Positions 7,248 to 64,000 are shown, counted from the first letter of the stretch. The stretch is 64,000 nucleotides of DNA from an uncultured candidatus Porisulfidus sp. (GCA_965200865.1 CBDAVG010000002.1:1903337-1967336), one strand, 5' to 3'. Notes: generated by a model from the sequence alone, not told the origin. Numbers and translations: made by a program.

Positions 7248-7248
7248 T

Positions 7249-14140: not shown

Positions 14141-14209
14141 GATTTTTGCTTATGAAGAGAATTCACCTTATCATAATCATAAGTTTTTTCAAGTAAAAGA
14201 GACAAGTGA

Positions 14210-44474: not shown

Positions 44475-44490
44475 ATTTTTTGATTGATGA

Positions 44491-44994: not shown

Positions 44995-45007
44995 TGCGTG
45001 GATTGTT

Positions 45008-45135: not shown

Positions 45136-45166
45136 TTCATCTGCCCCCGCTCAGTGTATGGATAAC

Positions 45167-46105
45167 TTAGCAAAGCTCGTAGTCCTCTTCCCGGCAAAGT
45201 AACAGTATGTTCTTGAAAACATCCGGATCTTTGATGTGGGTTATAGCACCGTCTTTGGGAAAAAGTTTATCGCGTAGCCGCGACAACCAAAAGCGCAGTG
45301 CTGCCCGACGCAAGATATTCCGCCATTCGTCTCTCTCAGTCGGTTCAAAAGGACGTCTTAGATGGTATGCGTTAATCAATGCCTCGTAGTGCGGGTGCGA
45401 CAGATGCTGATCTGCCGAACGGCACCAATCGTTAACCGCAACCGCAACATCATACAAAAGTTTGGCATGGCAGGCATAATAAAAATCTATCACACCGCTT
45501 AATCGCTCGCCTTCAAACAATGCATTGTCTTTGAATAGATCGGCATGGATGGTGCCTGCCGGCAAGGCATCCGATAACTGCTTGCTTTGATGTTTGATCT
45601 CATCGTTTAGCAACGCACTATCATCCTTACTCAACTTTGATTGTATGTTATCCGATTGCATCTTAAACCAGCCAATATCCCTAATATTCTCGCTATGACC
45701 GTCAAAAGCATGCATTACCAAATGCATCCTTGCCAAAATATCGCCAACCTGTTGGCATTGTGCAACACTGGGTGCTTTGATAGTACGCCCCGGCAAGCGC
45801 GTAATCAGTGCAGCAGGTTTGTCCTTTAACTCGTGCAAAGTGCGACCTTGCCGGTCAGCAATAGGGTGCGGACACGGTAAACCAGCATCTGCAACATGAC
45901 ACATCAAGTTAATAAAATAAGGCAACTGATCCGCTTCCAACCACTCAAACAATGTCAGCACATAATCGCCTCGATCAGTGTCCACAAAGTAGTTGGTGTT
46001 TTCTATACCCTCATCTATGCCTCGGTATGAAAGCAGAGAACCTATATCAAACCCTTGTATGAATCGCCCTAACTCCTCTTCAGAAATAACCGTATAAACC
46101 GACAT
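45167..46105 (-). CDS. thrB: Homoserine kinase, type II (APH family)
   Basis: MSVYT, GIENTNYF, IHADLFKDN, IDFYYAC, ALRFWLSRL, KDP. Confidence 0.93.
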   Translation of the reverse strand: MSVYTVISEEELGRFIQGFDIGSLLSYRGIDEGIENTNYFVDTDRGDYVLTLFEWLEADQLPYFINLMCHVADAGLPCPHPIADRQGRTLHELKDKPAALITRLPGRTIKAPSVAQCQQVGDILARMHLVMHAFDGHSENIRDIGWFKMQSDNIQSKLSKDDSALLNDEIKHQSKQLSDALPAGTIHADLFKDNALFEGERLSGVIDFYYACHAKLLYDVAVAVNDWCRSADQHLSHPHYEALINAYHLRRPFEPTERDEWRNILRRAALRFWLSRLRDKLFPKDGAITHIKDPDVFKNILLLCREEDYELC

Positions 46106-46833: not shown

Positions 46834-47565
46834 ATGAAAGATAATAAGAAAGCGATTGCAGACCTGGACAAAGCGATCAAACTAGACCCGAAGAATGTTG
46901 CTGCTTACGGTAGTAGAGGCGTTGCTAAAGTTGAAACAGGAGACTATGAGGGAGCAATTACAGACTTTAGCAAAGCGATTGAGCTAGACCCGAAGAATGC
47001 TTATGCTTACGCTAGTAGAGGCTTTGCTAAAAGTGCAATAGGAGACTACAAAGAGGCGATTGCAGACTTGGACATAGCGATTGGACTAAACTCCAAAAGT
47101 TCTGTTGCTTACAGTACTAGAGGCTTTGCTAACAGCCGAATAGGAGATTATACGCAAGCGATTGCAGACTACGACATGGCAATTGAACTAGACCCGAATC
47201 ATGCTGATGATTACTCGTATAGAGGCATGGCTAAAAACGAAATAAAAGACTTTGTGGGGGCGATTGCAGACTACGACATGGCAATTGAACTAGACCCGGA
47301 TCATGCCGATGATTACTTGTCTAGAGGCATTGCTAAAGTTGAAATAGAAGACTACGAGGAAGCGATTGTAGACTTGGACAAAGCGATTGAACTAGACTCT
47401 GGAAATGCTGGATCCTACTGTGGTAGAGGTTTTGCTAAAAGCCAAATAGGAGACTATAGAGGGGCACTTGCAGACTTCAACAAAACGATTGAACTAGACC
47501 CTAAAAATGCAGATCGCTATAAACAATTAATAAAGGCTGTTAAGGAACAACCTGATAATCTTTGA
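46834..47565 (+). CDS. Tetratricopeptide repeat protein
   Basis: 34-aa repeats AY.SRG.AK..IGDY.GAIAD.DKAIELDP. Confidence 0.93.
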   Translation: MKDNKKAIADLDKAIKLDPKNVAAYGSRGVAKVETGDYEGAITDFSKAIELDPKNAYAYASRGFAKSAIGDYKEAIADLDIAIGLNSKSSVAYSTRGFANSRIGDYTQAIADYDMAIELDPNHADDYSYRGMAKNEIKDFVGAIADYDMAIELDPDHADDYLSRGIAKVEIEDYEEAIVDLDKAIELDSGNAGSYCGRGFAKSQIGDYRGALADFNKTIELDPKNADRYKQLIKAVKEQPDNL

Positions 47566-48134: not shown

Positions 48135-48866
48135 ATGAAAGATGATACGAAAGAGATTACAGACTCCAATAAAGCAATTGAGCTAGAACCGAAGAATGCT
48201 GATGCTTACGGTAGTAGAGGCATTGATAAAGTTAAAAGAGGGGACTTTAAGGGGGCAATTACAGACTTTAGCAAAGCAATTGAGCTAGAGCCGAAGAATG
48301 CTGATGCTTACAGTAGTAGGGGCTTTGCTAAAAATGCAATGAAGGACTACAAAGAGGCGATTGCAGACTTAGACAAAGCGATTGAACTAAACCCGAATCA
48401 TGCTGCTGCTTACAGTAGTAGGGGCTTTGCTAAAGGTGGAATAAAAGATTACAAAGGGGCGATTGCAGACTTCAACATAGCAATTGAACTAGACCCGAAC
48501 CATGCTGAGGATTACTCGTTTAGAGGCATTGCTAAAAACAAAATAAAAGACTTTAAGGAGGCGATTGCAGACTTCAATATAGCAATTGAATTAGACCCGG
48601 ATCATGTCGATAATTACTCGTTTAGAGGCATTGCTAAAAAAGAAATAAAAGACTTTAAGGGGGCAATTGCAGACTTAGATAAAGCGATTAAACTAAACCC
48701 TAAAAATGCTGGAGCCTACTGTGGTAGAGGTTTTTCTAAAAGCCAAATAGGAGACTATAGAGGGGCACTTGCAGACTTCAAAAAAGTGATTAAACTAGAT
48801 CCTAAAAATGCAAATCAGTATAAAAAATTAATAAAGGCTACTAAGAAAAAACTTGATAATTTTTAA
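48135..48866 (+). CDS. Tetratricopeptide repeat protein
   Basis: Same length (243 aa) and layout as 46834-47565. Confidence 0.93.
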   Translation: MKDDTKEITDSNKAIELEPKNADAYGSRGIDKVKRGDFKGAITDFSKAIELEPKNADAYSSRGFAKNAMKDYKEAIADLDKAIELNPNHAAAYSSRGFAKGGIKDYKGAIADFNIAIELDPNHAEDYSFRGIAKNKIKDFKEAIADFNIAIELDPDHVDNYSFRGIAKKEIKDFKGAIADLDKAIKLNPKNAGAYCGRGFSKSQIGDYRGALADFKKVIKLDPKNANQYKKLIKATKKKLDNF

Positions 48867-48967: not shown

Positions 48968-49033
48968 AAAAGCAAAAGCCACCGCCGAAGCAGTGGCCTT
49001 GCACCCGCCAAACCGAAGTCGGACGGGAGGATT
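48968..49033 (-). ncRNA. Putative two-hairpin small RNA, copy 1 (no ORF downstream)
   Basis: Promoter TTGATT(49067-49062)-16 nt-TATAAT(49045-49040), then CCCGTCCGAC-TTCG-GTTTGGCGGG, GCCACTGC-TTCG-GCGGTGGC and a T run. Confidence 0.65.
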
Positions 49034-49122
49034 ACATATATTATATGTGTGGTTGGTAAGAAATCAAGAATTTGGGTAGATGAAATTTAGTGCGTTGGAC
49101 AAGTATTACAAAATGAAAATAC

Positions 49123-49375
49123 GGAGCTGTTGAAAAAGTACCGTTATCGCCTAAACGTAACCGCTTGCGCCATCAAATTTATGAAAACAGTAGGGGCGGA
49201 TTTGCATATCCGCCCTAAAGTTGGGTCCTCGCATAAATCTACCCGCTTCGCGCCACCAAATCATGGTTACCGTAAATAAAATGGATAGAGTGGATTGTCC
49301 GTACAGACACAACGCGTTAGGGCGGATATATAAATCCGCCCCTACAATTCTACGGAATACTTTTTCAACAGTCCC
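49123..49375. mobile_element. MITE
   Basis: GGAGCTGTTGAAAAAGTA ... TACTTTTTCAACAGTCCC. Confidence 0.82.
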
Positions 49376-49451
49376 ATACCATCCCGTCAGGTGGTTATCA
49401 TAATTTAGTGGCGTGCGGCGGTTAGGTTTGTATCTTAGCGTTGATTTTCAA

Positions 49452-49681
49452 TTATCTCAAAAGTACTGCAAGGAGAATCGCCACCCCGACACCAATAATC
49501 CACAGGATAGTACGGTTATTCAAACGATACATCTCACCCATAAGCCTTGTTTCTAGTTCTGCCAAATCTACTTTAGTTACTACCTCTTTCGAAGCTGCAT
49601 ATTGGCTACGGCTTCCTTTGCCTCAGCATCGGATAATTCAGGGATTTTTCTTAATGCATTGTATAGGGCTATATCAGTCAT
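49452..49681 (-). pseudogene. Frameshifted copy of the DUF1640-like gene at 56573-56803
   Basis: 230 bp versus 231 bp; 1-nt deletion near 49597 (gctgcatattgg versus gctgcaataatgg). Confidence 0.75.
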
Positions 49682-49789
49682 ATCTTAATATCATTATGTT
49701 GCTTGAAAGCCGTAATATAAATGAAGTGGATACGAAATTGGTTCGCCTAGATATTTTATGTTCGCAAACATTCTCTAGCACTTTCCTTA

Positions 49790-49854
49790 AAAAGCATAAG
49801 CCACCGCCGAAGCAGTGGCCTGCACTCGCCAAACCAAAGTCGGACGATGGGATT
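49790..49854 (-). ncRNA. Putative two-hairpin small RNA, copy 2
   Basis: TTGATT(49888-49883)-16 nt-TACAAT(49866-49861); hairpin 1 has a compensatory U-A pair in place of C-G. Confidence 0.62.
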
Positions 49855-49939
49855 GCGTATATTGTATGTGTAGTTGGAGAGAAATCAAGAATTGAGGTAA
49901 ACGAAAGTTGGCGCGTCAGATAAGTACTACAAAATGAAA

Positions 49940-50075
49940 AAACCACCCCGTCAGATAGAACCGCCGATTGAACCAGTAGGTCAATCGGCGTGGCATTGTG
50001 CAGAACCTTGACATGATTGTTAAACGCATGCATTACAAAATGCATAGGCTTGCCACCCCTCTAGAGGAGGAGAAT
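49940..50075. repeat. MITE-internal module remnant downstream of atpC
   Basis: AACCACCCCGTCAGATAGAACCGCCGATTGAACCAGTAGGTCAATCGGCG, as at about 14237 and 39001. Confidence 0.7.
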
Positions 50076-50081
50076 GGCGGG

Positions 50082-50501
50082 TTAGCGGCCGCGTTGGCGC
50101 AGGCGTTGTATCATGCGAAGTTGCGCTGCGACTTCGGCAAGTTCGGTCATTGTTTTGGCAGTTTCTATATCGGTGAGTTGGGTTTGTAGCAGTTCTTCGG
50201 CACGCTGCTTGGCTTCCAATGCCCTGGCTTCGTCCAAATCCTCGCCACGCAAAGCAGTGTCGGTTAGGACTGTGACCATGTGCGGTTGCACTTCTATCAC
50301 TCCGCCAGAGACATAGAAGTGGCGGTCATCTTGACCTTCTATGCGCACCCGCACTTCGCCGGGGCGTAGGGTTGATAGAAACGGGGCATGCTGCGGATAG
50401 ATGCCGACTTCGCCCAGCTCGGCTTCGGCAAAAACCGCATTGACCTCGCCGTTGAAGATCTCCGCTTCGGCACTAACTATATAAGTACGTATCGTGTTCA
50501 T
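50082..50501 (-). CDS. atpC: F0F1 ATP synthase epsilon subunit
   Basis: IVSAEAEIF.G, GEVGIYPQHAP, VSGGVIEVQP; full length. Confidence 0.95.
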   Translation of the reverse strand: MNTIRTYIVSAEAEIFNGEVNAVFAEAELGEVGIYPQHAPFLSTLRPGEVRVRIEGQDDRHFYVSGGVIEVQPHMVTVLTDTALRGEDLDEARALEAKQRAEELLQTQLTDIETAKTMTELAEVAAQLRMIQRLRQRGR

Positions 50502-50522
50502 CTGCTACCGCGCATGATTAGC

Positions 50523-51263
<741 letters not shown>

Positions 51264-51629
51264 TCAAACGTAACCGCTTGCGCTATTAAATTTATGATAA
51301 CCACCCGTAGGGGCGGACTCGCATGTCCGCCCTCATATGGATGACCAACTTGTCAAGATGCAAATTTTTACCAAAGTCTACGCTCCCGAAGCCTATGCCT
51401 CTGGAGGCTACACGCAAAAAGTCACCAAAACTCAAGGGCTAAATTACGACACAGGTGATGCCAACCAGGAGCGAGTGATAGCAGTAGGCTACCGCTCTTA
51501 AAGCATGCATAATTTATAATGCGCCACTCCTGGTGGCGACTTCCGTGCACGTGCTTAATCTCCTGTTTTACGGCATCATCCGGTGTCAGGGTGAGGAAGA
51601 GTGGAACTTGAGTAAAGTGCTTAACTAAT

Positions 51630-51790
51630 GAGTCGTTCGTGATTATCAACCTCATATTCGTGTACTCTGTTTTCACATTACCACATGATAATTCAATCGG
51701 ATGAACTTTGCCCCTTAATCTAAAGCCAGTTGCTCTACCACGCATGGCAGTTTACTACGGGCGGAACTCTAGGACGGCATATAAGTTCGA
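51630..51790 (-). ncRNA. Predicted bridge/seek RNA of the IS1111 element (ends approximate)
   Basis: Four short matches to the target and donor junctions in canonical order; detailed in findings. Confidence 0.7.
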
Positions 51791-51854
51791 AACTTATCAT
51801 TGACTTTACTCTCACTCCCTCTTCCTCGCGAAACGCTGGGTGGCGGCTTGCTGA

Positions 51855-52982
51855 TTAGTCAGCTAGCTCAGCTGCCGCTGCGGCATGCAACGCTTCCCAG
51901 ATAAAGCCCAACAGCTCTCTGGCACACGCCACCTTAATCTTGTTGAAGTGTTTGTTGGCATGAAACATTTGATGATACTTCTTATACAGACGTCTCATGC
52001 AACGGTCGCCAATGTCTATAGCAACCAGGTCTTGGTCTGCGCGTCGACCCCGCAACGCTTTGTTAACCGTGCAACGGCTACCCGCCAACTGGCACGCTTC
52101 TACTGCCGCAGTGCGGATATATTTGTTGCCCATATTAGTAATACCTCCTTTGCGACTTTTGCCACCCGAACTATACTCGCAAACGCTCAAGCCGGCATAG
52201 CTCATGAGCTTGCGCGGATGAGCAAAGCGATGGATGTCGCCTATCTCAACGATGAACGTCATCGCCGTCAACTCAGCAATCCCTCGGATACAACATAAAT
52301 AGCCGACTGCCTGGCGATATCGCTTGGACATCGCTAACTGATGGATATCGTTATCGTATTGTTTGACAACTCCTTGGTGCGTTGCCAGTAGATAGAGCTT
52401 ATACTCTAAATCTTTGCGGAAATGTAGATTGAACCTTTCATCTTTAAGCAAGCCACTTAAGAACGCCAGGTGTCCTTTCGTCCAATAACTCTTGCACTGC
52501 GTGCTGCTACGATAATCAATCCCTTGGCAACGGCATGCCGACAAAATCTGCTGCTTGCAGATCTTGCACGCATCCACCGCTTGGTTGCGTCCACGAATGA
52601 GTAGACGATGCCCCTCGCTCTCCTCATCAATCGCACGGACGATTTTTAACAGACCTTGCTTATAGTATCTGGCCAGCTTCTCGCTATCTAAGCGATCGGT
52701 CTTGATGCGATCTGAGGCACACACTGGGATCTGCGATGGTGCGATCAGATCGCAGTGAATGCCGACCTTGTCAAATTGTCTCTTTAGCGAAAAACCTAAA
52801 TAGCTCGCCTCATAACAGACCTTGATAAACTCTTTCGGCAATGCAGTCTTGATGATTGCCTTATGCAATGCCTTAAAGTTTGGGGCGGTTTTAATGGTAT
52901 GATAATGATTGTGTTTGTTAATGAAGGTGGCGGTGAAACGATTATCGTCAACATCAACGCCAACATAAAGTATACTAGTCAT
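51855..52982 (-). CDS. IS110-family DEDD recombinase
   Basis: YVGVDV, CYEA, KTDRLD, YAGL...EYSSG, GNKYIRT, VACAREL. Confidence 0.93.
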   Translation of the reverse strand: MTSILYVGVDVDDNRFTATFINKHNHYHTIKTAPNFKALHKAIIKTALPKEFIKVCYEASYLGFSLKRQFDKVGIHCDLIAPSQIPVCASDRIKTDRLDSEKLARYYKQGLLKIVRAIDEESEGHRLLIRGRNQAVDACKICKQQILSACRCQGIDYRSSTQCKSYWTKGHLAFLSGLLKDERFNLHFRKDLEYKLYLLATHQGVVKQYDNDIHQLAMSKRYRQAVGYLCCIRGIAELTAMTFIVEIGDIHRFAHPRKLMSYAGLSVCEYSSGGKSRKGGITNMGNKYIRTAAVEACQLAGSRCTVNKALRGRRADQDLVAIDIGDRCMRRLYKKYHQMFHANKHFNKIKVACARELLGFIWEALHAAAAAELAD

Positions 52983-53158
52983 GGATGACCTCCTTTGTTT
53001 AGTAATTTATCGGACCCCTCCAAAGAGGGGATTAAAGTGAAAGTTTAACTGACTTTCGGCAGAGTTGGTCATCCATATTATCTAAAGTACCGTTCGGCAC
53101 TACTGCAACCGCTTGCGCCACATAATTACGCGAAACACCGTAGGGGAGGGCTAGCATG

Positions 53159-54534
53159 ATGCCTTATTTAAAATCAAGTCATTTTACTCATTTTTAATCT
53201 CCTTTTCTGAATATCTATTTAGGCCGCAGCCGGACACTCATGACGCGGGTCAAACGGCTTATTGTGCTTGAGTACTCCATGAATAATACGGGCGAGCTTA
53301 TGTGCACAAGCGACAATGATTTCCTTTTTGCTTAACTCCGGGCGTCGGCGTTGCAAGCGGTTGGCAAAGTCGCGGATAATGGGGTTATGAAGCCGTGCCG
53401 AGAGTGCCGCCATAAACAAAGCGGTGCGTAGGCAGCGTTTGCCAATTTTAGAGATATGAGCCCGTGCTTCGCAGTTGCCGGATTGTCTGCGCATTGGTGC
53501 GATGCCGATAAAAGCAGCGAGTTGCTTGGGATGCTCAAACGTATTATCATCTAATACTGCACACAGGGTGGCTGCGATTTGCATACCGATACCGGGTATC
53601 GAACACAATAATTTGCAGGTCTGTGCAAGTTGTTCGTTTTCGGCAATAAGCCTTTCGATTGAAGCATCAATCTGATCGATGCGTTGCTCAAGGTGTCTCA
53701 AGTCTGCAGCCGCACTGCGCTTTTGTCCAGCGGTGCGCAAAGTCTTTTCACTATTCCTTAACATCGTCTTCGCTAATGTCAGTTTGTGTCTGCGTTTGAG
53801 AGCATCCTTCAAGGTCTGGATAGCCTGTGACGAACTGGTCCACCGATAATTAGGGTTTGACACTGCGAAGCGTGCAATTAAGCGCGCATCATCGCCATCA
53901 GTTTTATTACGCATATTAAGACTTTTGCGAAAATAGGCAACTTGAGCCGGGGGTGCCACCTGTATCGGATGTTTAGCCCGGGAAGCTCGCTCGCAAAGGT
54001 TTGTCTCCAAGCCACCAGTGGCTTCAACGCAGATCGGGCAGCACTTTGCGCCCTGTTTAGCAAGCCAAGCTAACAGCTGTTTAATACCTTTGATATTATT
54101 TCTAAATTGTGCTTCCGAGAAACTCTCGTCAACGAATAATAATGCCACCTCTAAAGTGTCTTTAGAGACATCAATGCCGATTGCGGCAGGTTGTTTGTGT
54201 TTCACCATAATTTCCTCCATAATAGTTATTGAATGAATGAATTACTAGGTATCAAGCAGTGTTTAGGAAAGTATGACTACGCCGCCCAAACAGGTAAATA
54301 CGAGATCTAAAGTCCCAAGCTGCCTTACGAGCTCTATAGTCATAACGCCGGAGGAGTGCTTATCATGTTAACAGGCTTTAATGCCTAATCCTCTCTTGAG
54401 CGTGTCTCCTCCGACTTCCTAGGCACTGCATCTACCTAAGCGTTTATCTTATATCAAATAAGCCATAGTTAAATATACCTGCATCTACCTAAGCGTTTAT
54501 CTTATATCAAATAAGCCATAGTTAAATATACCTG
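53159..54534 (-). mobile_element. IS110-type element inserted in a REP-like hairpin
   Basis: Splits GGGAGGGCTAGCA-TG-CCCTCCC with a TG core at 53157-53158 and 54533-54534; about 300 bp of non-coding sequence upstream of the recombinase. Confidence 0.82.
53219..54220 (-). CDS. IS110-family DEDD recombinase
   Basis: IGIDVSK, VEATG, KTDGDDA, SIPGIG, RRQSG, ACAHKL. Confidence 0.93.
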   Translation of the reverse strand: MEEIMVKHKQPAAIGIDVSKDTLEVALLFVDESFSEAQFRNNIKGIKQLLAWLAKQGAKCCPICVEATGGLETNLCERASRAKHPIQVAPPAQVAYFRKSLNMRNKTDGDDARLIARFAVSNPNYRWTSSSQAIQTLKDALKRRHKLTLAKTMLRNSEKTLRTAGQKRSAAADLRHLEQRIDQIDASIERLIAENEQLAQTCKLLCSIPGIGMQIAATLCAVLDDNTFEHPKQLAAFIGIAPMRRQSGNCEARAHISKIGKRCLRTALFMAALSARLHNPIIRDFANRLQRRRPELSKKEIIVACAHKLARIIHGVLKHNKPFDPRHECPAAA

Positions 54535-54535
54535 C
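54426..54535. repeat. Perfect 53-bp tandem duplication at the IS110 end
   Basis: CTGCATCTACCTAAGCGTTTATCTTATATCAAATAAGCCATAGTTAAATATAC at 54426 and 54479. Confidence 0.92.
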
Positions 54536-54791
54536 CCTCCCTAAAGTACCGTTCTGTATCACTACAACCGCTTGCGCCATTTGGTTTTGGTTCCCATGAA
54601 TTGGATGGCGTACGATTTTATTTTTGCAGGCGCAACCCGTTCTGCAAAATGTTACGCTGTTCGTGCTACTGCAACAAACGGCGGGTATTGCATTTTGCAA
54701 TGCATGCGTTTAGCAATCATGTTGAGGTTCTACAGAACGTCACGCCGATTGACCTGTTGGTTCAAGCGGCGATTCTTTTTTCAACAGCCCC

Positions 54792-54995
54792 AACATCGGA
54801 GCCTCGTTTGAGACCTTCCGATGAGCCTAATGCAATCGTGCGAACCACGCCGTCGCCCAATTGCTGCTGCACTTCCAATGTTAAATCGCTCTCACCTTCA
54901 ACATTCAATGCGTCGTATATTTGCGGTATCTGCTCACGCGGAAACTCCACGTCAACTACCGCGCCTACGATTTGTACGATTTGTCCAGAATCCAT
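54792..54995 (-). pseudogene. atpD: ATP synthase beta subunit, N-terminal fragment, copy 1
   Basis: [15 protein letters not shown]...[23 protein letters not shown]; truncated at GSDV by a MITE end. Confidence 0.92.
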
Positions 54996-55022
54996 TTTCT
55001 CCTCCGACAGTATTTCTATAGG

Positions 55023-55340
55023 TTAAATTGCTGCAGCGCCGCCGACAATCTCGGACAACTCCTGCGTAATCGCTGCCTGACGCGCTTTGTTATACGCCAG
55101 TTGCAGCTCGTCAATTAGTGATCCGGCGTTCTCGGATGCGCTCTTCATCGCCACCATGCGCGCCGCCATCTCGCAGGCGACATTCTCCACCACCGCCTGA
55201 TAAACTTGTGATTCGATATAACGCTTGAGTACAAAATCAAGCACAGTGTGCGAACCCGGCTCATAAATATAATCCCAATAATACTTCATACTCTCGTCCT
55301 CTATCGGCAGTACTGGCAAAAGCTGTAACGCCTGCGGCTT
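55023..55340 (-). pseudogene. atpG: ATP synthase gamma subunit, C-terminal fragment, copy 1
   Basis: QLLP...WDYIYEP...[13 protein letters not shown]...[22 protein letters not shown]. Confidence 0.92.
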
Positions 55341-55572
55341 TGCCGCCGATCGTTCGCAGTCGGTTTGATCTAGCTATAACTACTTTGAGTAATTGACAGC
55401 CTCGTAAATTGAAAATCAAAGATGGTTTTATTAAACTGCCAAATTATGACAACGGCAACATCGTCGTATAAAAAATTGTGTCATGATTATCATGTCAAGT
55501 TATACTAAAAAAAGTTTTGACTGCATGAAAAGTTAAGCCAAAGCATGGAATACGACTGTAGGATCTGTCAAG

Positions 55573-56487
55573 TTGAATAATATCCTTAAATTTGTTTGTA
55601 ATTTTTATAGTATAAGAAAGTTTTTTGCTATTTTAATAGTACTTCTTGTCTTATCGGTATTCATTAATTCTTTTATCTTTTTTGCGATAGGAGCCTTCAT
55701 AGCCACGGTATTGTATATAGTCTGTAAGTTTGCTGATGCTAATGCTTACTATAAAAAAGGCCTTTCTCAATTTGTAATGAAAGATCACAGGAAGGCGGTT
55801 GAATTAAATTCAGAGTCTGCTGAAGCCTACCATAGTAGAGGTTTTACTAAATTTGAAATGAAAGATTATAAAGGGGCGATTGCAGATTATGACAAGGCGA
55901 TTGAACTAGATCCAAATCATCCTGCTAATTACTGTATTAGAGGTGTTGCTAAAAGTGAAATAGGAGACCAAAAGGGAGCAATTGCAGACTACGACAAAGC
56001 GATTGAACTAGACTCGAATTGTACCGATGCTTACTGTGCTAGAGGTGCTACTAAAAGCGAAATGAGAGACTATAAGGGGGCGGTTGCAGACTATGACAAA
56101 GCGATCAAACTAGACCCGGATGATGTTGCTGCTTACGGTAGTAGAGGTGCTGCTAAAAGTGAAATAAGAGACTACAAGGGAGCGATTGCAGACTACGACA
56201 GAGCGATTGAATTAAACCCGAATTATGCTGCTACTTACGGTAGTAGAGGTGCTACTAAAAGCGAAATAGGCGACTATAAGGGAGCGATTGCAGACTACGA
56301 CATAGCGATTGAATTAGACCCGAATTATGCTGCTGCTTACGGTAGTAGAGGCATTGCTAAATGCGAGATAGGGGACTACAAGGAGGCAATTTCAGACTTG
56401 GACAAAATAATTGAACTTGACTCCCAAAATGCAGATCGTTATAGAAAATTAATGGAGGATACTGAAAAGAAACTTAATCATCTTTAA
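55573..56487 (+). CDS. Membrane-anchored TPR protein
   Basis: N-terminal hydrophobic hairpin, then about six TPRs. Confidence 0.92.
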   Translation: MNNILKFVCNFYSIRKFFAILIVLLVLSVFINSFIFFAIGAFIATVLYIVCKFADANAYYKKGLSQFVMKDHRKAVELNSESAEAYHSRGFTKFEMKDYKGAIADYDKAIELDPNHPANYCIRGVAKSEIGDQKGAIADYDKAIELDSNCTDAYCARGATKSEMRDYKGAVADYDKAIKLDPDDVAAYGSRGAAKSEIRDYKGAIADYDRAIELNPNYAATYGSRGATKSEIGDYKGAIADYDIAIELDPNYAAAYGSRGIAKCEIGDYKEAISDLDKIIELDSQNADRYRKLMEDTEKKLNHL

Positions 56488-56572
56488 TTCAAACTTACAC
56501 AATTTAGACTACAGGCTCCGTAAATCTGATGGCGCAGTGCGGTTGGGATTGTATCTTAGCTTTGATTCCCAA

Positions 56573-56803
56573 TTACTTCAAAAGTACTGCGAGGAGAATC
56601 GCCACCCCGGCACCAATAATCCACAGGATAGTACGGTTATGCAAACGATACATCTCACCCATAAGCCTTGTTTCTAGTTCTGCCAAATCTACTTTAGTTG
56701 CTACCTCTTTTGAAGCTGCAATAATGGCTACGGCTTCATTCGCCTCAGCATCGGATAATTCAGGGATTTTTTTTAATGCATTGTATAGGGCTATACCAGT
56801 CAT
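56573..56803 (-). CDS. Small DUF1640/CCDC90-like coiled-coil protein with TM tail
   Basis: LYNALK...SDAEA...VATKVDLAELETRL...ILWIIG. Confidence 0.72.
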   Translation of the reverse strand: MTGIALYNALKKIPELSDAEANEAVAIIAASKEVATKVDLAELETRLMGEMYRLHNRTILWIIGAGVAILLAVLLK

Positions 56804-56911
56804 ATCTTAATATCATTATGCTGCTTGAAAGCCATATTGTACATAAAGTGGAAGTGTGATTGGTTCGCCTAGATATTTTATGTTCGCAAACATTCTCTGG
56901 TACTTTCCCTA

Positions 56912-56977
56912 GAAAGCAAAAGCCACCGCCGAAGCAGTGGCTCTGCGCCCGCCAAACCGAAGTCGGGCAGGGAAATT
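56912..56977 (-). ncRNA. Putative two-hairpin small RNA, copy 3
   Basis: TTGATT(57011-57006)-16 nt-TATAAT(56989-56984), two UUCG hairpins, T run. Confidence 0.68.
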
Positions 56978-57065
56978 ACTTACATTATATGTGTGACAAA
57001 AGAAAAATCAATAGTCCTTAGCATATACTGTCAAAATAGTAATGCTGCCATCTTAAATCCCGATA

Positions 57066-57698
57066 CTAACGCCATTCTTTAGGATAAGAAAATTCGCCCT
57101 GATTATCTTTAAGTTTGCGAGGAAATTGAGCAATTTTAAGTTGTTCATCGGATATTTTCCTCTTGAAAAAAGAGTATCGCTTTAACTCTGCTACAAAAAA
57201 ATCGGCAGGTGTAATAAGACCAACAGGTAATTTCAAAGTCGTTTTTATATATTTCAAAGGTTCGGCAAGATCCGAGTCGTTTGACAGAAGAATAGGAACA
57301 TCGCATTCGTTCTGAAAACAATCTATCAACATAAAAGTTGCGATGTTAACATCCGAACCTTTCTCTTCAAATTTAGAAATTTTCACTATCTGTTCGTGTA
57401 AAGGGTTACCTTCTGCTAAAAGTTTTCCCTTGACGTTTTGTTTCTTAAACAATCCAAAATGGATTTCTATTTCTGGAATTGTTCGTAAGGCTCTTAGATA
57501 GACATCCTGTCTTTGTCTTACACCAGGGTTACTATCGTTGGGAATCACCTTTGCTGTAAAATACCGTATTTTTGAAATTTTGCAGTCTTCAAAACTGAAA
57601 GACTCAATCAGTGCCTTCAAATCTAGCCACTTATATTTTGTCTTTTTTAGACGGTAATAAAGATTGAAACCATCTACATAGATAATATAATTTTTCAA
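57066..57698 (-). CDS. NYN-domain (LabA/DUF88, PIN-like) putative ribonuclease
   Basis: YVDGFNLYY, IRYFTA, RQDVYLRAL, EEKGSDVNIA, LSNDSDL acidic motifs; TTG start with AAGGTAGG RBS. Confidence 0.9.
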   Translation of the reverse strand: MKNYIIYVDGFNLYYRLKKTKYKWLDLKALIESFSFEDCKISKIRYFTAKVIPNDSNPGVRQRQDVYLRALRTIPEIEIHFGLFKKQNVKGKLLAEGNPLHEQIVKISKFEEKGSDVNIATFMLIDCFQNECDVPILLSNDSDLAEPLKYIKTTLKLPVGLITPADFFVAELKRYSFFKRKISDEQLKIAQFPRKLKDNQGEFSYPKEWR

Positions 57699-57713
57699 AT
57701 TAGACCTACCTTA

Positions 57714-57778
57714 GAAAGCAAAAGCCACCGCCGAAGCGGTGGCCTGCACCCGCCAAACCGAAGTCGGGCAGGGAAATT
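57714..57778 (-). ncRNA. Putative two-hairpin small RNA, copy 4, directly upstream of the NYN gene
   Basis: CCCTGCCCGAC-TTCG-GTTTGGCGGG, then GCCACCGC-TTCG-GCGGTGGC-TTTTGCTTT, ending about 15 nt before the start codon. Confidence 0.7.
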
Positions 57779-57784
57779 ACTTAT

Positions 57785-57812
57785 ATTATATGTGCGGTTA
57801 GAGAGAAATCAA
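57785..57812 (-). promoter_or_regulatory. Sigma70-type promoter of the sRNA-NYN unit
   Basis: TTGATT-16 nt-TATAAT; boxes and spacing conserved in all four copies while the spacer sequence varies. Confidence 0.75.
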
Positions 57813-57846
57813 GAAGCGAGGCAATGTCAACCCAGAGTGCAAATGT

Positions 57847-58191
57847 GGAACTGCTGAAAAAATACTGTCATCGCACAAATTCAATCGCTTGCGTCATATA
57901 ATTACGCGAAACACCGTAGGAGAGGGCTAGCATTCCCCCCCTAAAGTACCGTTCTGTATCACTACAACCGCTTGCGCCATTTGGTTTTGGTTCCCATGAA
58001 TTGGATAGCGTACGATTTTATTTTTGCAGGCGCAACCCGTTCTGCAAAATGTTACGCCGTTTGTGCTACTGCAACAAACGGCGGGTATTGCATTTTGCAA
58101 TGCATGCGTTTAGCAATCATGTTGAGGTTCTACAGAACGTCACGCCGATTGACCTACTGGTTCAATCGGCGATTCTTTTTTCAACAGCCCC
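57847..58191. mobile_element. MITE; counterpart of the IS110-occupied copy, without the insertion
   Basis: GGAACTGCTGAAAAAATA ... TTTTTCAACAGCCCC; 57941-58190 differs from 54541-54790 at about 6 positions. Confidence 0.85.
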
Positions 58192-58395
58192 AACATCGGA
58201 GCCTCGTTTGAGACCTTCCGATGAACCCAATGCAATCGTGCGAACCACGCCGTCGCCTAATTGCTGTTGTACTTCCAATGTTAAATCGCTCTCACCTTCA
58301 ACATTCAATGCGTCGTATATTTGCGGTATATGCTCACACGGAAACTCCACGTCAACCACCGCACCTACGATTTGTACGATTTGCCCAGAACTCAT
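58192..58395 (-). pseudogene. atpD: ATP synthase beta subunit, N-terminal fragment, copy 2
   Basis: Same breakpoint as copy 1, offset by exactly 3400 bp. Confidence 0.92.
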
Positions 58396-58422
58396 GTTTT
58401 CCTCCGACAGTATTTCTATAGG

Positions 58423-58746
58423 TTAAATTGCTGCAGCGCCTCCGACAATCTCGGAAAGCTCTTGCGTAATCGCTGCCTGACGCGCCTTGTTATACGCCAG
58501 TTGCAGCTCGTCAATCAGTGAACCGGCGTTCTCGGATGCGCTTTTCATTGCAACCATTCGCGCCGCCATCTCGCAGGCGACATTCTCCACCACCGCCTGA
58601 TACACTTGTGATTCGATATAACGCTTGAGTACAAAATCAAGCACATTGTGCGAATCCGGTTCATAAATATAACCCCAATAATGCTTCATGCTCTCGTCCT
58701 CTATTGGTGGCACTGGCAAAAGCTGCAACGCTTGCGGCTTTGCCAC
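58423..58746 (-). pseudogene. atpG: ATP synthase gamma subunit, C-terminal fragment, copy 2
   Basis: Same extent as copy 1. Confidence 0.92.
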
Positions 58747-58846
58747 CGATCGTTCGCGATTGGTTTGAACTAGCTATACCATTTTTTTAGATTATTATTG
58801 CTATACTATTGCGGTTATTCAACCTAAATACGTGGAAAGCTAAACA

Positions 58847-60045
58847 ATGATAAAGAAAATAACGATACTTAAAATAGTGGTAGTTGCCATGATATGGGGG
58901 GGATTTGTTGTCCAAACAGTATCAGGCAATCAAGAGATTATCCATGAGGATAGTGCGGATGTAGTGAGAGACTACCAGAAAGCGGCAGAACAAGGAGATG
59001 TGAATGCTCAATCCATACTTGGAGCAATGTATTACGAAGGCAAGGGCGTGCAAAAAAACTATGCAAAAGCATTTGAATGGTTTGAAAAAGCAGCCAAGCA
59101 AGGAGATGCAGATGCTCAAAACATCCTTGGATTGAGGTATTACAATGGCGAGGGGGTACCAAAAGATTACACAAAAGCGTTTGAATGGTTTGAAAAGCAG
59201 TCAAGCAAGGACATGCAGATGCTCAAAACAACTTAGGGGTGATGTATGAGAGTGGCAATGGTGTGCCGAAAGATTATAAGAAAGCAGCTGAATGGTACCA
59301 AAAAGCAGCTGAGCAAGGACACGCAAATGCTCAATACAACTTAGGGGTAATGTATGCCAATGGCGAGAGTGTGCCAAAGGACTATACAAGGGCAATTGCC
59401 TGGTATCAAAAAGCAGCCGAGCAAGGATTTGCAAAAGCTCAACACAACTTAGGGGTAATGTATGCCAATGGCGAGGGTGTGCCAAAAGACTATGCAAAAG
59501 CAATTGCCTGGTACCAAAAAGCAGCCGAGCAAGGATTCGCAGATGCTCAATATAACTTAGGGGTGATGTATGTCAATGGCGAAGGTATGCTAAAAGATTA
59601 CACGAAAGCGTTTGAATGGTTTGAAAGAGCGGCGGCACAAGGATTTGCAGATGCGCAATATAACTTGGGGGTGATGCATGCCAATGGCGACGGTATGCCA
59701 AAAGACTATACAAAGGCAATTGCATGGTACCAAAAAGCAGCCGAGCAAGGATTTGCAAAAGCTCAACACAACTTAGGGGTGATATATTACAACGGCCAAG
59801 GCGTGCCAAAAGACCATACAAAAGCAGTTAGTTTGTTGGAAAAAGCGGCCGAGCAAGGATTTGCAAATGCTCAGGATGCTCTTAACAAAATTAAACAGTC
59901 AACAGTCTCTTTCTCTGATATGCTAGATAAAAGTTTGTCAGCAGGAGTTGTGGGCGCGTTTGTAGGTGGCACTGCGGTTCTTCTCTTCATTATAATTAGA
60001 TTGTTTTATAATTTCTTTGTTTTTAAGATTAAAGATAAAGTTTAA
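58847..60045 (+). pseudogene. Sel1-repeat protein (signal peptide, about 8 repeats, C-terminal TM) split by a 1-nt frameshift
   Basis: AQYNLGVMY.NG.GVPKDY.KA..WYQKAAEQG repeats; A4 at 59193-59196 where the preceding repeat has A5 (59085-59089). Confidence 0.82.
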
Positions 60046-60095
60046 AGAAGTAGAGGCTATAACCTAAATGAAATACGACTATAGGATCTATTAAA

Positions 60096-62855
60096 TTGAG
60101 TAATATCCTTAAATCTATTAGTAATTTTTATAAGTTTGTTAAAAAATCAACTTACCATAACAAAGATCGCGCCAAAGGCGAAATGGGAGGTTATAAAGAG
60201 GCAATTGCAGATTTAAATAAAAAGATCAAACTAGATCCGAAGGCTGCTAATACTTACTTTAACAGAGGGGTTGATAAATATAAAATGGCAGACTACAAAG
60301 GGGCAATTTCGGCCTTGAACAAAGCGATTGAACTGGACTCGAATCATGCTGATGCTTACTGGTTTAGAGGTTCTACTAAACATAAAATGAAAGACTGCAA
60401 AGGGGCAATTGCAGACTTTGACAAAGTAATTGGACTAGACCCGAATCATGCTATGGCTTATCATGGTAGAAGTTTTGTTAAATATACAATAGGAGACTAT
60501 AAGGGAGCGATTGCAGATTTAAATAAAAAAATTGAACTAGACCCAAAGGATGCTGACTCTTATAAAGAGACAATACAAAATATTAAAAGGGAAGTAAAGG
60601 ATGTATATAAAAGAGGTCTTTATAAACTTAAAGTGGAAGATTATACAGGAGCAATTGCAGACTTGGACATAGCCATTGAACTAGAAATAAATCATGCTGT
60701 TGCTTATCATGGTAGAGGTTTTGCTAAAAGTAAAACAGGAGACCCCAAAGGGGCGATTGCAGACTTGGACATAGCCATTGAACTAAATTCAAAATCTGCT
60801 AATGCCTACCACAGCAGAGGCATTTCTAAATATACAATAGGAGACTACGAGGGAGCGATTGCCGACTATGACAAAGCTATTGAACTAAAGCCGAATTATG
60901 CTGATGCTTACCATAACAGAGGCATTGCTGAGAGTAGCATAGGAAACCTCAAAAGGGCAGTTGCAGACCTGGACATAGCGATTGAACTAAATCCAGCGTA
61001 TGCTAATGCCTACCATAGTAGAGGCGTTGCTAAATATAATTTAGGAGACTACGAGAAAGCAATTGCCGACTATGACAAGGCAACTGAACTAGACCCACAT
61101 CATGCTGGCACCTACTATAGTAAAGGCATTGCTAAAAGTGCAATAGAGGACTATGAGGGGGCGATTGCAGACTTGGACAAAGCGACTGAACTAAACCCAG
61201 CATCTGCTAATACTTATAAAGAAACAATACAAAGTATTAAAGAGAAAAAGATATATAAAAGAGGCATTTCTAAACTTGCAATAGAAGACTATAAGGGAGC
61301 AATTGCAGACTTGGACAAAGCGATTGAACTAGACTCGAAGCATGTTGTTGCTTACGGTAGTAGGGGCATGGCTAAAAGCGAAATCGGAGACCACAAGGGG
61401 GCGATTGCAGACTTGGACAAAGCGATTGAACTAGACCCGAAACATGCTATTACTTACAGTAGTAGAGGCACCGCTAAAAGCAAAATAGGAGACTATAAGG
61501 GAGCGATTGCAGACTACGACATAGCGATTCAACTAGATCCGAAGCATGTTACTGCTTACGGTTGTAGAGGCATGGCTAAAAGCGAAATCGGAGACTACAA
61601 GGGGGCGATTGCAGACTACAGCATGGCGATTGAACTAGAACCGAAGGATCCTGTTGCTTACAACAGTAGAGGCATGGCTAAAAGTGTAATAGAAGACTAT
61701 GAGGAGGCGATTGCAGACTTTGACAAAGCAATAAAACTTGACCCGAAACATGCTGCTGCTTACGGTAGTAGAGGTATTGCTAAAAGCAAAATAGGGGACT
61801 ATAGGGAGGCAATTGCAGACTTTGATATGGCGATTGAACTAGAACCGAGGGATGCTGTTGCTTACAGTAATAGAGGTATTGCCAAAAGTATAATAGAAGA
61901 CTATGAGGGGGCAGTTGCAGATCTAAACAAAGCGACTGAACTAAATCCAGAATCTGCTAATGCTTATAAAGAAACAATACAAAGTATTAAAAAGGAGGCG
62001 GCTAAACTAAATCCAGCGTCTGCTGATGCCTACCATAACAGAGGTTCTTCTAAATATAAAGTAGGAGATTACAATGGGGCGATTGTAGACTACGACAAAG
62101 CGATTGAGCTAGACCCGAAGCATGCCGTCGCTTACTATAGCAGAGGCGTTGCTGAGGGTAGAATAGGAAACCACAAAAAGGCGATTGCAGACTTCGATAA
62201 AGCAATTGAACTAGACCCGAATCATGCTGCTTACGATAGCAGAAGTTTTGCTAAATATAAAATAGGAGATTATGAGGGAGCGGTTGCAGATCTAAACAAA
62301 GCGACTGAACTAAATCCAGCGTATGCTAATGCTTATAAAGAAGCAATACAAGTTATTAAAAAGGAGGCGACTGAACCAAATCCAACATCTGCTAATGACT
62401 ACCATAGCAGAGGTTCCGCTAGATATAAAATAGGGCACTATGAGGAAGCGATTACAGACTACGACAAGGCGATTGAATTAGATCCGAATTATGCTGTCGC
62501 TTACCATAACAGAGGTTTTGCTAAACATAACATAGGAGACTATGAGGGGGCGGTTGCGGACTACGACAAGGCGATTGAACTAGATCCGAATCATGCCGTC
62601 GCTTACAATAGCAGAGGTTTTGCTAAATATAGAATGGGAGACTATGATGGAATGATCTCAGACTTAGACAAAATGATTGAACTAACCCCTCTGTTTGCCG
62701 CCGCCTACCATAGCAGAGGTTTTGCTAGACATAAAATGGGAGACCAGAAGGGGGCGATTGCGGATTTGAACAGGGCAATTGAACTAGACCCGAAAAATGC
62801 AGATCATTATGGAGAATTAATGAAGGATGCTAAAGAAAAACTTTATAATCCTTAA
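60096..62855 (+). CDS. Large TPR protein (more than 20 repeats)
   Basis: Continuous 34-aa TPRs with recurring YKETIQ.IK linkers. Confidence 0.93.
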   Translation: MSNILKSISNFYKFVKKSTYHNKDRAKGEMGGYKEAIADLNKKIKLDPKAANTYFNRGVDKYKMADYKGAISALNKAIELDSNHADAYWFRGSTKHKMKDCKGAIADFDKVIGLDPNHAMAYHGRSFVKYTIGDYKGAIADLNKKIELDPKDADSYKETIQNIKREVKDVYKRGLYKLKVEDYTGAIADLDIAIELEINHAVAYHGRGFAKSKTGDPKGAIADLDIAIELNSKSANAYHSRGISKYTIGDYEGAIADYDKAIELKPNYADAYHNRGIAESSIGNLKRAVADLDIAIELNPAYANAYHSRGVAKYNLGDYEKAIADYDKATELDPHHAGTYYSKGIAKSAIEDYEGAIADLDKATELNPASANTYKETIQSIKEKKIYKRGISKLAIEDYKGAIADLDKAIELDSKHVVAYGSRGMAKSEIGDHKGAIADLDKAIELDPKHAITYSSRGTAKSKIGDYKGAIADYDIAIQLDPKHVTAYGCRGMAKSEIGDYKGAIADYSMAIELEPKDPVAYNSRGMAKSVIEDYEEAIADFDKAIKLDPKHAAAYGSRGIAKSKIGDYREAIADFDMAIELEPRDAVAYSNRGIAKSIIEDYEGAVADLNKATELNPESANAYKETIQSIKKEAAKLNPASADAYHNRGSSKYKVGDYNGAIVDYDKAIELDPKHAVAYYSRGVAEGRIGNHKKAIADFDKAIELDPNHAAYDSRSFAKYKIGDYEGAVADLNKATELNPAYANAYKEAIQVIKKEATEPNPTSANDYHSRGSARYKIGHYEEAITDYDKAIELDPNYAVAYHNRGFAKHNIGDYEGAVADYDKAIELDPNHAVAYNSRGFAKYRMGDYDGMISDLDKMIELTPLFAAAYHSRGFARHKMGDQKGAIADLNRAIELDPKNADHYGELMKDAKEKLYNP

Positions 62856-62920
62856 CTTTAAACTTACACAATTTAGATTACAGGCTCAAAGCATGGAACA
62901 TGACTATAGGATCTATTAAA

Positions 62921-64000
62921 TTGAGTAATATTCTTAAATCTATTTGTGATTTTTATAGTGCAAAAAAGTTTTTTGCCGTTTTAATCGTACTTCTTGTCTT
63001 ATCAGTATTCATTAATTCTTTTATCTTTTTTGGGGCAGGAGCCTTCATAGCCACAGCATTGTACATAACTTGTAAGTTGACTAATACTAATACTTACCTT
63101 AGCACGGGTGTTGCTAAACATGCAATAGGAGACTATGAAGGAGCGATTGCAAACTTGGATAAAGCAATTGAACTAGATCCGAATCATGCTGGTGCTTACC
63201 GTAGTAGAAGTTCTGCTAAAGATGCAATAGGAGACTATCAAGGAGCGATTGCAGACTTGAACAACGCAATTGAACTAGATCCGAATCATGTTGTTGCTCA
63301 CCTTTGGAGAGGTTCTGATAAACATAAAATAGGAGACTATAGGGGGGCGATTATAGATTACGATAAAGCGATTCAATTTGACCCAAAGAATGTTTATGCT
63401 TACGGTCTCAGAGGCATTTCTAAAAATGAAATGGGAGACTACAAGGGGGCGATTGCAGACTACGACAGAGCGATTGAACTAGAACCGAATCGTGCTGTTG
63501 CTTACGGTAGCAGAGGCACCGCTAAAAGTGAAATAGGAGATTATGAAGGGGCGATTGCAGACTTCAACAAGGCAATTGAACTAGATCCGAAGGATGCTCA
63601 TTTTTATAAAGAAAAAATACAAAATATTAAAAATGATGTACATAAAAGAGGTTCTTCTAAATTTGAAACGAAAGATGATAAGGAGGCGATTATAGACTTA
63701 GGCGAAGTGACTGAACTAGACCGCAAGAATGCTGATGCTTACGGTGAGCAAGGTTTTGCTAAAGTTGAAATAGGAGACTACAAGGGAGCGATTGCAGACT
63801 TTGACAAAGCAATTAAACTAGACCCAAATTGTGCTGCTGCTTACGCTAGTAGAGGCTTTGCTAAAAGTGAAATAGGAGACTACAAGGGGGCGATTGCAGA
63901 CTTGGATAAAGCGATTGAACTAGACCTCAATCATGCTGTCGCTTACTGTGGTAGAGGCATTGCTAAAAATAAAATAGGAGACTACAAGGGGGCGATTGCA
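62921..64000 (+). CDS. Membrane-anchored TPR protein, runs off the window end
   Basis: TTG 62921 gives MSNILKSICDFYSAKKFFAVLIVLLVLSVF..., paralogous to 55573-56487, followed by TPRs. Confidence 0.9.
   Translation, partial: MSNILKSICDFYSAKKFFAVLIVLLVLSVFINSFIFFGAGAFIATALYITCKLTNTNTYLSTGVAKHAIGDYEGAIANLDKAIELDPNHAGAYRSRSSAKDAIGDYQGAIADLNNAIELDPNHVVAHLWRGSDKHKIGDYRGAIIDYDKAIQFDPKNVYAYGLRGISKNEMGDYKGAIADYDRAIELEPNRAVAYGSRGTAKSEIGDYEGAIADFNKAIELDPKDAHFYKEKIQNIKNDVHKRGSSKFETKDDKEAIIDLGEVTELDRKNADAYGEQGFAKVEIGDYKGAIADFDKAIKLDPNCAAAYASRGFAKSEIGDYKGAIADLDKAIELDLNHAVAYCGRGIAKNKIGDYKGAIA

Follow-up and report, generated by a model that had tools for sequence, protein, structure and literature searches.

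This report concerns two copies of a broken piece of the ATP synthase (atp) operon in the genome of an uncultured candidatus Porisulfidus sp. (GCA_965200865.1). They lie in a stretch of 64,000 nucleotides, here called the window, at CBDAVG010000002.1:1903337-1967336. In contig notation this is C2:1903337-1967336 of a 2.56 Mb genome in three contigs, called G000 below; positions without a contig name are counted from the first letter of the window. The public runs that contain this stretch are sponge metagenomes and one coded organism; the metagenomes with the locus are 12 runs in 3 studies. Both copies, unit A (54535-55378) and unit B (57935-58778), hold the end of atpG and the start of atpD, written atpG' and atpD' because the genes are incomplete. 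These fragments are best explained as recombination scars at the 3' end of the atp operon, and not as genes in their own right.

Read from left to right on the plus strand, the locus begins with DctM, DctQ and an APH-family kinase gene, followed by two 243-aa TPR genes, an atpC and a 3' piece of atpD. Next come a 107-aa open reading frame (ORF) of unassigned family, two elements of the IS110 insertion sequence (IS) family and unit A. A TPR gene, a 93-aa ORF and an NYN gene separate this from unit B, after which Sel1 and TPR genes continue over 15 kb, up to an IS110 copy and the intact atpC-atpD-atpG-atpA. Partial atp copies bracket and punctuate an island of repeat-protein genes directly after atpC.

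The two units are 844 bp long and align at an offset of 3400 with 50 mismatches (94.08%) and no gaps, which bears out the duplication reported in an earlier look at the sequence alone (the original prediction). On the minus strand, each unit consists of a 37-bp flank that is not atp sequence, the last 105 atpG codons, the native spacer, atpD codons 1-68, and a 256-bp composite that resembles miniature inverted-repeat transposable elements (MITEs). The atpG stop and a 27-bp spacer separate atpG' from atpD'. As predicted, A and B are broken at identical positions, both in atpG and at the atpD/MITE junction. The atpG breakpoint itself had been put too far out: the atp homology of unit A covers 54791-55341, so that the break is at 55341/55342 and not at 55378, the 37 bp in between being shared but not part of atpG. 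This flank is common to unit A, unit B, a remnant outside the window and a fragment in the related species G001. The genus comparison used here covers five species (G000-G004), of which G001 and G004 have single-contig genomes.

The MITE-like composite is made of at least three modules with a high copy number. These modules have hundreds of partial matches genome-wide, and the full 256 bp is found only in A and B. A scan of 49000-60000 against Rfam matched no family. If the repeat of A and B is followed to the left, which in unit A means across the IS110b element, 53097-53157 and 57873-57933 match at 54 of 61 positions; both stretches are members of a family of repeated modules, and they overlap with the end that 16 copies of the IS define.

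Table 1 Features of the atp fragments and of the island around them, in window coordinates.
Feature	Position	Strand	Remarks
Second complete atpC, 139 aa	50082..50501	-	Pfam ATP-synt_DE_N, ATP-synt_DE; 17 synonymous, 0 non-synonymous differences from intact
atpD 3' piece, model positions 222-462	50523..51260	-	TIGR01039 463.5 bits; 27 synonymous, 1 non-synonymous in 239 codons against intact
IS110-family transposase, 375 aa	51855..52982	-	Pfam Transposase_20, DEDD_Tnp_IS110
IS110b element, transposase 53219-54220	53137..54531	-	Pfam; inserted at left edge of unit A
MITE-like composite, unit A	54535..54790		Genome-abundant repeat modules; 7/256 positions differ from unit B
atpD' of unit A, codons 1-68	54792..54995	-	TIGR01039 75.6 bits, positions 2-79; native ribosome-binding site and ATG
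atpG' of unit A, last 105 codons, stop 55023-55025	55026..55340	-	TIGR01146 135.2 bits, positions 183-286
37-bp non-atp flank at atpG breakpoint, unit A	55342..55378		Differs from unit B at 5/37 positions
TPR repeat protein gene, 304 aa	55573..56487	+	Pfam TPR_1 and related families; cargo right of unit A
NYN-domain gene, 210 aa	57066..57698	-	Pfam NYN 2.3e-7
MITE-like composite, unit B	57935..58190		Compared pairwise with unit A
atpD' of unit B, codons 1-68	58192..58395	-	TIGR01039 73.3 bits
atpG' of unit B, last 105 codons	58426..58740	-	TIGR01146 138.4 bits
37-bp flank, unit B	58742..58778		Sequence shared with unit A
Cargo right of unit B	58847..64000	+	Sel1 58847-59236, Sel1 59239-60045, 919-aa TPR 60096-62855, TPR/Sel1 from 62900 past the window edge (Pfam)

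The differences between A and B are mostly silent. Synonymous and non-synonymous divergence (dS and dN) were computed by the Nei-Gojobori method over the 173 codons of atpG'-atpD'. Between A and B there are 26 synonymous and 10 non-synonymous differences, with a dS of 0.26 and a dN of 0.025, which makes dN/dS 0.097. Against the intact operon, the counts are 18 and 6 for A (dN/dS 0.089) and 15 and 6 for B (0.108). Within atpG', dN/dS is 0.06-0.09 between the fragments (A-B, A-G001 fragment and B-G001 fragment), and the overall range is 0.06-0.13. The hand counts of the original prediction agree with the recount: the last 73 atpG codons hold 12 nucleotide differences, all of them synonymous, atpD' holds 8 synonymous and 3 non-synonymous codon changes, and the roughly 6 differences in 250 bp of MITE come out at 7 in 256 bp. 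What the prediction overlooked is the first 32 codons of atpG', which contain all 6 of its non-synonymous differences between A and B.

In a decaying pseudogene, changes would be blind to codon position. A and B do not behave in this way, and the prediction that dead copies should not diverge as these have is upheld by a dN/dS of about 0.1, not 1. Third positions differ at 27 of 173 (15.6%), while first and second positions together differ at 9 of 346 (2.6%). Random substitutions that kept the observed transition and transversion counts were simulated in 20000 trials. For A-B this gave a mean of 25.1 non-synonymous differences and a minimum of 15, against 10 observed, so that 0 of the 20000 trials came as low. 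Six pairs were simulated, and in each the observed value was reached by 0 of 20000 trials. Ordinary neutral decay after truncation and duplication, with a silent bias caused by chance or by mutation bias, is suggested by the shared breakpoints and the shared MITE composite, which look like the duplication of an already truncated unit. Given the simulations and the contrast between codon positions, it has next to no chance of being the explanation.

The two sides of each unit have diverged to different degrees. The dN between A and B (0.025) is about the same as the divergence of the MITE side (0.027) and of the first and second positions. The third positions, on the other hand, are about as diverged as the 37-bp flank (5/37, 13.5%), and both are far above the MITE. 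A model with two rates places a break at 54930, with 12 mismatches in 395 bp to its left and 38 in 449 bp to its right (twice the log-likelihood difference is 11.7). Two readings fit this contrast. The atp interior of one unit may have been overwritten after a recent duplication. Conversely, the units may come from lineages that were separated for long, the MITE side having later been homogenised between A and B.

Whole-genome profile and DNA searches for atp sequence found one intact operon, 20 kb to the right of unit A (atpD C2:1977934-1979304, atpG 1979341-1980198), with its atpC at C2:1977490, to which the island extends. The genome-wide count of further atp fragments, which had been put forward as a check, yields only units A and B, a piece at 50073-51243 and the remnant outside the window at C2:1970133-1970442. 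At about 80% identity, this remnant retains some 49 bp of atpG' together with the 37-bp flank and a further flank like that of A. The piece at 50073-51243 (atpD'-atpC) holds a complete atpC and the last 239 atpD codons. Its atpC adjoins the native downstream flank (APH, DctQ and DctM at 43104-46105), and the upstream end of its atpD adjoins repeat-family sequence. It is 95.8% identical to the intact operon over 1171 bp, and the 49 differences are 44 synonymous, 1 non-synonymous and 4 non-coding. This pattern resembles that of the ortholog pair of G000 and G001, with 57 synonymous and 3 non-synonymous differences in atpD and 13 and 0 in atpC (70 and 3 in total). The extra copies do not amount to a second ATP synthase set in G000: only atpC is complete, atpD comes in two non-contiguous pieces (1-68 and 222-462), and of atpG there are just the last 105 codons. 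Elsewhere in the window, a 454-aa open frame at 17602-18732 (C2:1920938-1922068, minus strand) scores 200.8 bits with the atpD model, which is below the cut-off; it is an alpha/beta-family ATPase outside the operon.

The origin of the differences can be traced by comparing each of them with the intact alleles of the other species of the genus. Unit B differs from the local intact allele at 23 sites, and at 18 of these 23 it has the state of another species' intact allele, atpD Ser2 and His22 included. The same goes for 14 of 20 sites in the G001 fragment and for 9 of 24 in copy A. Private changes, counted as synonymous/non-synonymous, number 3/2 in B, 10/5 in A, 4/2 in the atpG'-atpD' part of the G001 fragment, 8/1 in the atpD'-atpC piece and 11/2 in a duplicate found in G004. 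Two atpC' scraps in G001 serve as an internal control. Their private changes are 3/10 and 4/4, which is a neutral pattern, and because of this it can be said that dead atp DNA does decay neutrally in this genus.

The tree with the intact operons that had been suggested contains no clade of fragments. In this maximum-likelihood tree, the root-to-tip distance is 0.031 for B and 0.021 for the G001 fragment, 0.032-0.033 for the intact alleles, and 0.072, about twice as much, for A. The differences of each duplicate from the intact copies are evenly spread, and between the intact operons of G000 and G001 there is only a mild dip in atpG; neither observation speaks clearly for or against mosaic blocks. 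In addition, the same sponge metagenomes contain several atpD alleles (unitigs of four runs), some of which equal the intact copy and some neither copy. Judged by their substitutions, the fragments look like snapshots of functional alleles with short neutral tails, and not like old dead DNA.

The reading preferred here, at a rough probability of 0.6, is that the fragments are alternative functional alleles, put in place or overwritten when related lineages recombined homologously, at a site of the kind called insertion with long target duplication. The TPR/Sel1/NYN island sits after atpC, with the intact operon on one side and, at the native flank, a partial second copy (atpG 3' end, atpD, atpC) on the other. 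In G000, insertions of MITE and IS110 sequences would have split this second copy, leaving unit A and the atpD'-atpC piece, with unit B further within the island. The mostly synonymous differences would have arisen between working alleles of related lineages, not in dead pieces. Each piece would have been in a working allele, or overwritten from one, until about 0.1-1.5% of neutral divergence ago; homologous recombination among co-resident lineages would then have united different alleles. We infer recombination as the source of the fragment alleles. The route may have been overwriting in place or import together with a cassette, and the data fit both. The original prediction had proposed that the fragments are refreshed from diverged functional alleles. 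The shared states, the small number of private changes, the root-to-tip distances of B and the G001 fragment and the fact that A and B do not behave as sisters agree with this, and of the two interpretations offered in the prediction it fits better.

Several observations weigh against recombination among lineages as the explanation. The intact operons of the four other species of the genus include no donor, as 95-96% is the closest that any of them comes to A or B. When genome and metagenome contigs were scanned with the 105-aa atpG' peptide, identity was at most 77% among the matches listed, from which records near the window are possibly left out. All three atpG'-atpD' fragments are distant from the intact allele of their own genome (dS 0.14-0.30), and therefore conversion by the local gene alone is insufficient and alleles of other lineages are needed. 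Differences come within 10-16 bp of the atpG breakpoint, which is close for conversion from a donor that does not have the same flank. The unique 256-bp composite has diverged by 2.7% while dS between A and B is 0.26, so that an extra event is needed. States seen elsewhere are partly expected through homoplasy at fast third positions. Support inside the relevant clade of the tree is weak (34-64%), and the p values of the approximately unbiased (AU) tests are borderline, at 0.045-0.126: a tree constrained to pair A with B is 10.3 log-likelihood units worse (AU p = 0.049) and has a zero-length branch, and forcing all fragments together gives an AU p of 0.045 or 0.126. Lastly, the linkage of A and B on one molecule rests on the assembly.

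That last point raises the question of whether two or three co-occurring strains were stitched together, the copies being alleles of different genomes. The genome does consist of three contigs with an estimated contamination of 2.8%, parts of C2 recur in contigs C1 and C3 at 86-95% identity, the unitigs of four runs hold several atpD alleles, and the copies have diverged by a strain- or species-like 4-7%. Yet the junctions of A and B unite non-homologous DNA, and a haplotype switch can therefore not have made them. The right end of unit A (55378/55379) is bridged by unitigs with 0 differences in X9 and X1, two runs from two studies; the left end of unit B is bridged in X9, and its right end in X1 with 2 differences. 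Unitig depths are similar (13.3, 12.1 and 10.4 in X9; 15.4, 8.5 and 10.7 in X1). The same atpG breakpoint is present in G001 and a comparable layout in G004, both of them single-contig genomes. And even if A and B were in separate strains, shared dead junctions with a dN/dS of 0.1 would need explanation. An assembly artefact is, all told, very unlikely. The public runs consist of short unitigs, and in the unitig records listed, no bridge with 31 letters to each side spans the MITE/atpD' junctions or the atpG breakpoints. A joint 53158->54536 in X9 with a 21-letter side possibly comes from any copy of the repeat family and was not used.

C1 (21.7 kb) is collinear with C2:1294116-1316359 at 92-95%, and C3 (46 kb) matches C2:508505-522016 and C2:893500-899069 at 86-93%. 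They could be a second lineage in the sample or diverged second copies. C2 itself has giant open frames at 850000-891000 and 983000-1020000 (more than 6030 and more than 5528 aa within 20-kb slices) with tandem repeats of 5.8-18 kb at 86-93%. The idea that tandem repeats of about 92% in C2 are stitched haplotypes was rejected, as they lie inside open frames of more than 5500 aa.

Partial atp duplications of a comparable kind occur in three of the five species of the genus (G000, G001 and G004). G003 and G002 have a single operon, in G003 with the same DctQM-APH flank. In G004, this flank is followed by a complete second atpC-atpD with 67 atpG residues, then an IS110, Sel1 genes, two transposases (IS3-type and ISAZ013-type) and the intact operon; the second copy differs from its own intact one at 42 synonymous and 3 non-synonymous sites. 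The order in G001 is intact operon, TPR gene, a 3004-aa GLUG/PKD/Big_2 protein, the atp fragment, an N6_N4 methylase gene, a 378-aa ORF and a second atpC' piece. Its fragment shares the atpG breakpoint and the 37-bp flank with A and B, and has a different internal deletion that joins atpD codon 31 to atpC codon 16. The methylase gene and the ORF, which may be a restriction-modification pair, lie between direct atpC' repeats (G001:C1:2425001-2445000, local 10005-14229), with 17 synonymous and 9 non-synonymous differences between the two atpC' fragments.

The duplicate in G004 invites another explanation for part of the data: a second atpD-atpC pair may long have been functional and selected in place, and may have been broken only recently in G000. 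This would apply to the atpD'-atpC piece and the G004 duplicate alone. The second atpD of G004 is indeed full-length, a 463-aa ORF with all three Pfam domains, it is accompanied by a second atpC, and the private changes of both copies, as given above, are mostly silent. Such a pair would leave atpG' unexplained, as a 105-codon 3' piece was never functional and still has a dN/dS of 0.06-0.13. Moreover, the break is older than the split of A and B (MITE 2.7%) if unit A and the atpD'-atpC piece were once the two halves of a single copy. At that age, the 870 non-synonymous sites of the atpD'-atpC piece should hold about 12 changes, and they hold 1. A long-lived second pair is therefore judged unlikely.

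It was also proposed that the short peptides themselves are under purifying selection, be it the C-terminal helix fragment of the gamma subunit, the N-terminal barrel fragment of the beta subunit (77 aa), or both. Several facts speak for this. The low dN/dS of atpG' holds even between fragments, and the 551 bp of atp sequence contain no stops and no indels in any of the three atpG'-atpD' fragments (A, B and G001). The atpD' ORF of A and B retains its native ribosome-binding site and ATG, and reads 9 codons into the MITE. Extra gamma C-terminal pieces are found in 4 of 19 genomes of the family. Yet atpG' combines the lowest dN/dS of all parts with the absence of a conserved start codon: the first start in unit A is an internal TTG at 55319, and in unit B it is a GTG at 58746, where A has GCG. 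The most pristine piece of all, with its 44 synonymous differences and 1 non-synonymous one, is a beta fragment without model positions 1-221. The extents of the pieces vary, with 67 residues in G004 and 57 in a more distant relative, G007. The atpC' scraps of G001 decay neutrally, the fragments share no derived states of their own and have mostly ancestral or other-species states, and the private non-synonymous changes in B include Arg20Cys and Asp23Gly. Selection on short products is thus disfavoured, and is at best as improbable as an assembly artefact, if not slightly more so.

Matches to the gamma C-terminus beyond the first are present in 3 of the 5 genomes from the genus, in 4 of the family's 19 and in 8 of an even sample of 300 from the class, the relatives being non-independent. 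One genome of the class sample is unpublished and has a single ordinary match; the 6 matches from this sample that fall outside the family may be complete second genes. G007, the fourth case in the family and a member of another genus, has a local tandem duplication of 246-251 bp over the atpG/atpD junction, 93% identical to its own gene (G007:C1:1176001-1192000, local 7034-7547) and with a gamma piece of 57 residues. Import of this fragment from the Porisulfidus genus was considered and rejected, since its identity is 93.6% with the atpG of G007 itself, against 76-79% with the genus. Its 8 synonymous and 5 non-synonymous differences are too few for use. In G011, a 187-aa ORF is inserted between atpG and atpD.

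The atp repeats are plausible anchors for cassette turnover, as the original prediction also had it. The island between direct atp repeats in three of five species and the methylase pair between atpC' repeats in G001 are consistent with such a role. A broader version is that the end of the atp operon is an integrase-free landing pad in this sponge-associated genus, with dead atpG'-atpD' units recurring among TPR/Sel1 cassettes. General recombination with DNA from co-resident lineages would overwrite the units with working alleles, and would also use them for adding, swapping or looping out cassettes. This is tentative, and less probable than not.

The cargo is itself varied. The genes of the TPR/Sel1 island are made of 102-bp and 108-bp units with 60-85% identity, which have 27 and 6 copies in 50000-64000. 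A block at 55394-56421 is 92% identical to the region of the G001 TPR gene, and a block at 56539-58041 is 82% identical to the G001 NYN region; judging by these identities, the differing distances are compatible with a mosaic origin. The NYN gene is flanked by direct repeats of about 110 bp (56902-57011 and 57704-57812) that are 88-90% identical, each with a GC-rich hairpin (families D10 and D13), and in this position resembles a separate cassette. The twin 243-aa TPR genes, at 46834-47565 and 48135-48866, are 1301 bp apart and lie between the APH gene and the second atpC.

The IS110b element at the edge of unit A has 16 copies of at least 98% identity in contig C2, each adjoining the same repeat module, with ends near 53136-53140 and 54482-54497 in the window copy. 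Beside the intact atpC there is one such copy, oriented the other way. The window copy has a terminal tandem duplication of 53 bp (54426-54531), and one X4 contig is without one of these 53-mers (joint 54425->54479).

The data suggest a caution. Where populations recombine, a gene fragment may show a dN/dS far below 1 without being functional, and the clearest case is the beta-subunit piece, which is unable to work. The atp scraps beside the island seem to be signs of a recombination hot spot and not of a novel type of gene. The layout also suggests that symbionts may gain and reshuffle TPR and Sel1 genes without dedicated recombinases, via the conserved end of an essential operon. If strain-resolved data agree, the fragments would be a dated record of allele turnover at a core locus.

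The island shares traits with several known systems. Gene conversion between silent partial copies and an expressed gene is known, for example, from pilS and pilE in Neisseria. There too, partial and non-expressed copies near a functional locus exchange sequence by homologous recombination. The direction proposed here is however the opposite, from functional allele to dead copy, and there is no sign of diversification of atp. Integron-like arrays are similar in that one fixed place on the chromosome holds a row of accessory genes with a short unit recurring between them. They differ in that there is no integrase and there are no attC sites here, the recurring unit is a housekeeping fragment, and exchange would go via general recombination. 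To see the landing pad as functionally analogous to an integron, but driven by recombination and founded on a housekeeping gene, is equally tentative.

Flank-anchored homologous recombination includes allelic replacement, the Campbell-type crossover and homology-facilitated illegitimate recombination (HFIR), which has one homologous and one illegitimate end. The likeness is that housekeeping homology beside foreign DNA would admit or release cassettes without a recombinase, and would carry donor alleles along. In the comparison with HFIR and allelic replacement, the case here is known from sequence layout, with no transfer event observed.

Insertion with long target duplication reportedly has an earlier source in Nobusato et al. 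2000. According to part of the account of Furuta, Abe and Kobayashi (2010, PMC2853133), it mainly involves restriction-modification genes in mostly naturally competent species, with listed repeats of 46 to about 420 bp, and their hypothesis is a cycle of insertion, amplification via the repeats, and release. The Porisulfidus island is alike in that its foreign genes are enclosed by long direct repeats, the repeated sequence being single in the empty-site relative G003, which has one operon; G000, G001 and G004 have a partial copy at the flank and the intact operon beyond the cargo. The repeats cover the 3' end of a gene, and in G001 a methylase gene and an ORF lie between atpC' repeats. The atp repeats, which measure 551 to 2055 bp of atpG-atpD-atpC and extend to about 2.1-2.2 kb of the operon, are longer than the required 30 bp and are not a tRNA or integrase site. 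Among the 30 and 28 ORFs scanned against Pfam there was no integrase or tRNA gene, with no dedicated tRNA scan run.

There are differences as well. Set beside the repeats in that part of the account, those at atp are kilobase-scale and belong to a housekeeping operon, and the cargo is mainly TPR/Sel1 repeat-protein genes and not restriction-modification genes. Where near-identical twins are expected, the repeats here differ by 2.2-7%, nearly all of it synonymous, with a signature of purifying selection; such diverged repeats are either old events with later allele turnover, or one repeat is derived from the donor. No other mobile element should be behind such an insertion, whereas in G000 and G004 the repeats are adjoined by IS110-family elements, and the island contains IS110 and other IS elements. 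The repeat is also present as several units. The closest known kind for this layout nevertheless is insertion with long target duplication, and the island is then a variant of that kind.

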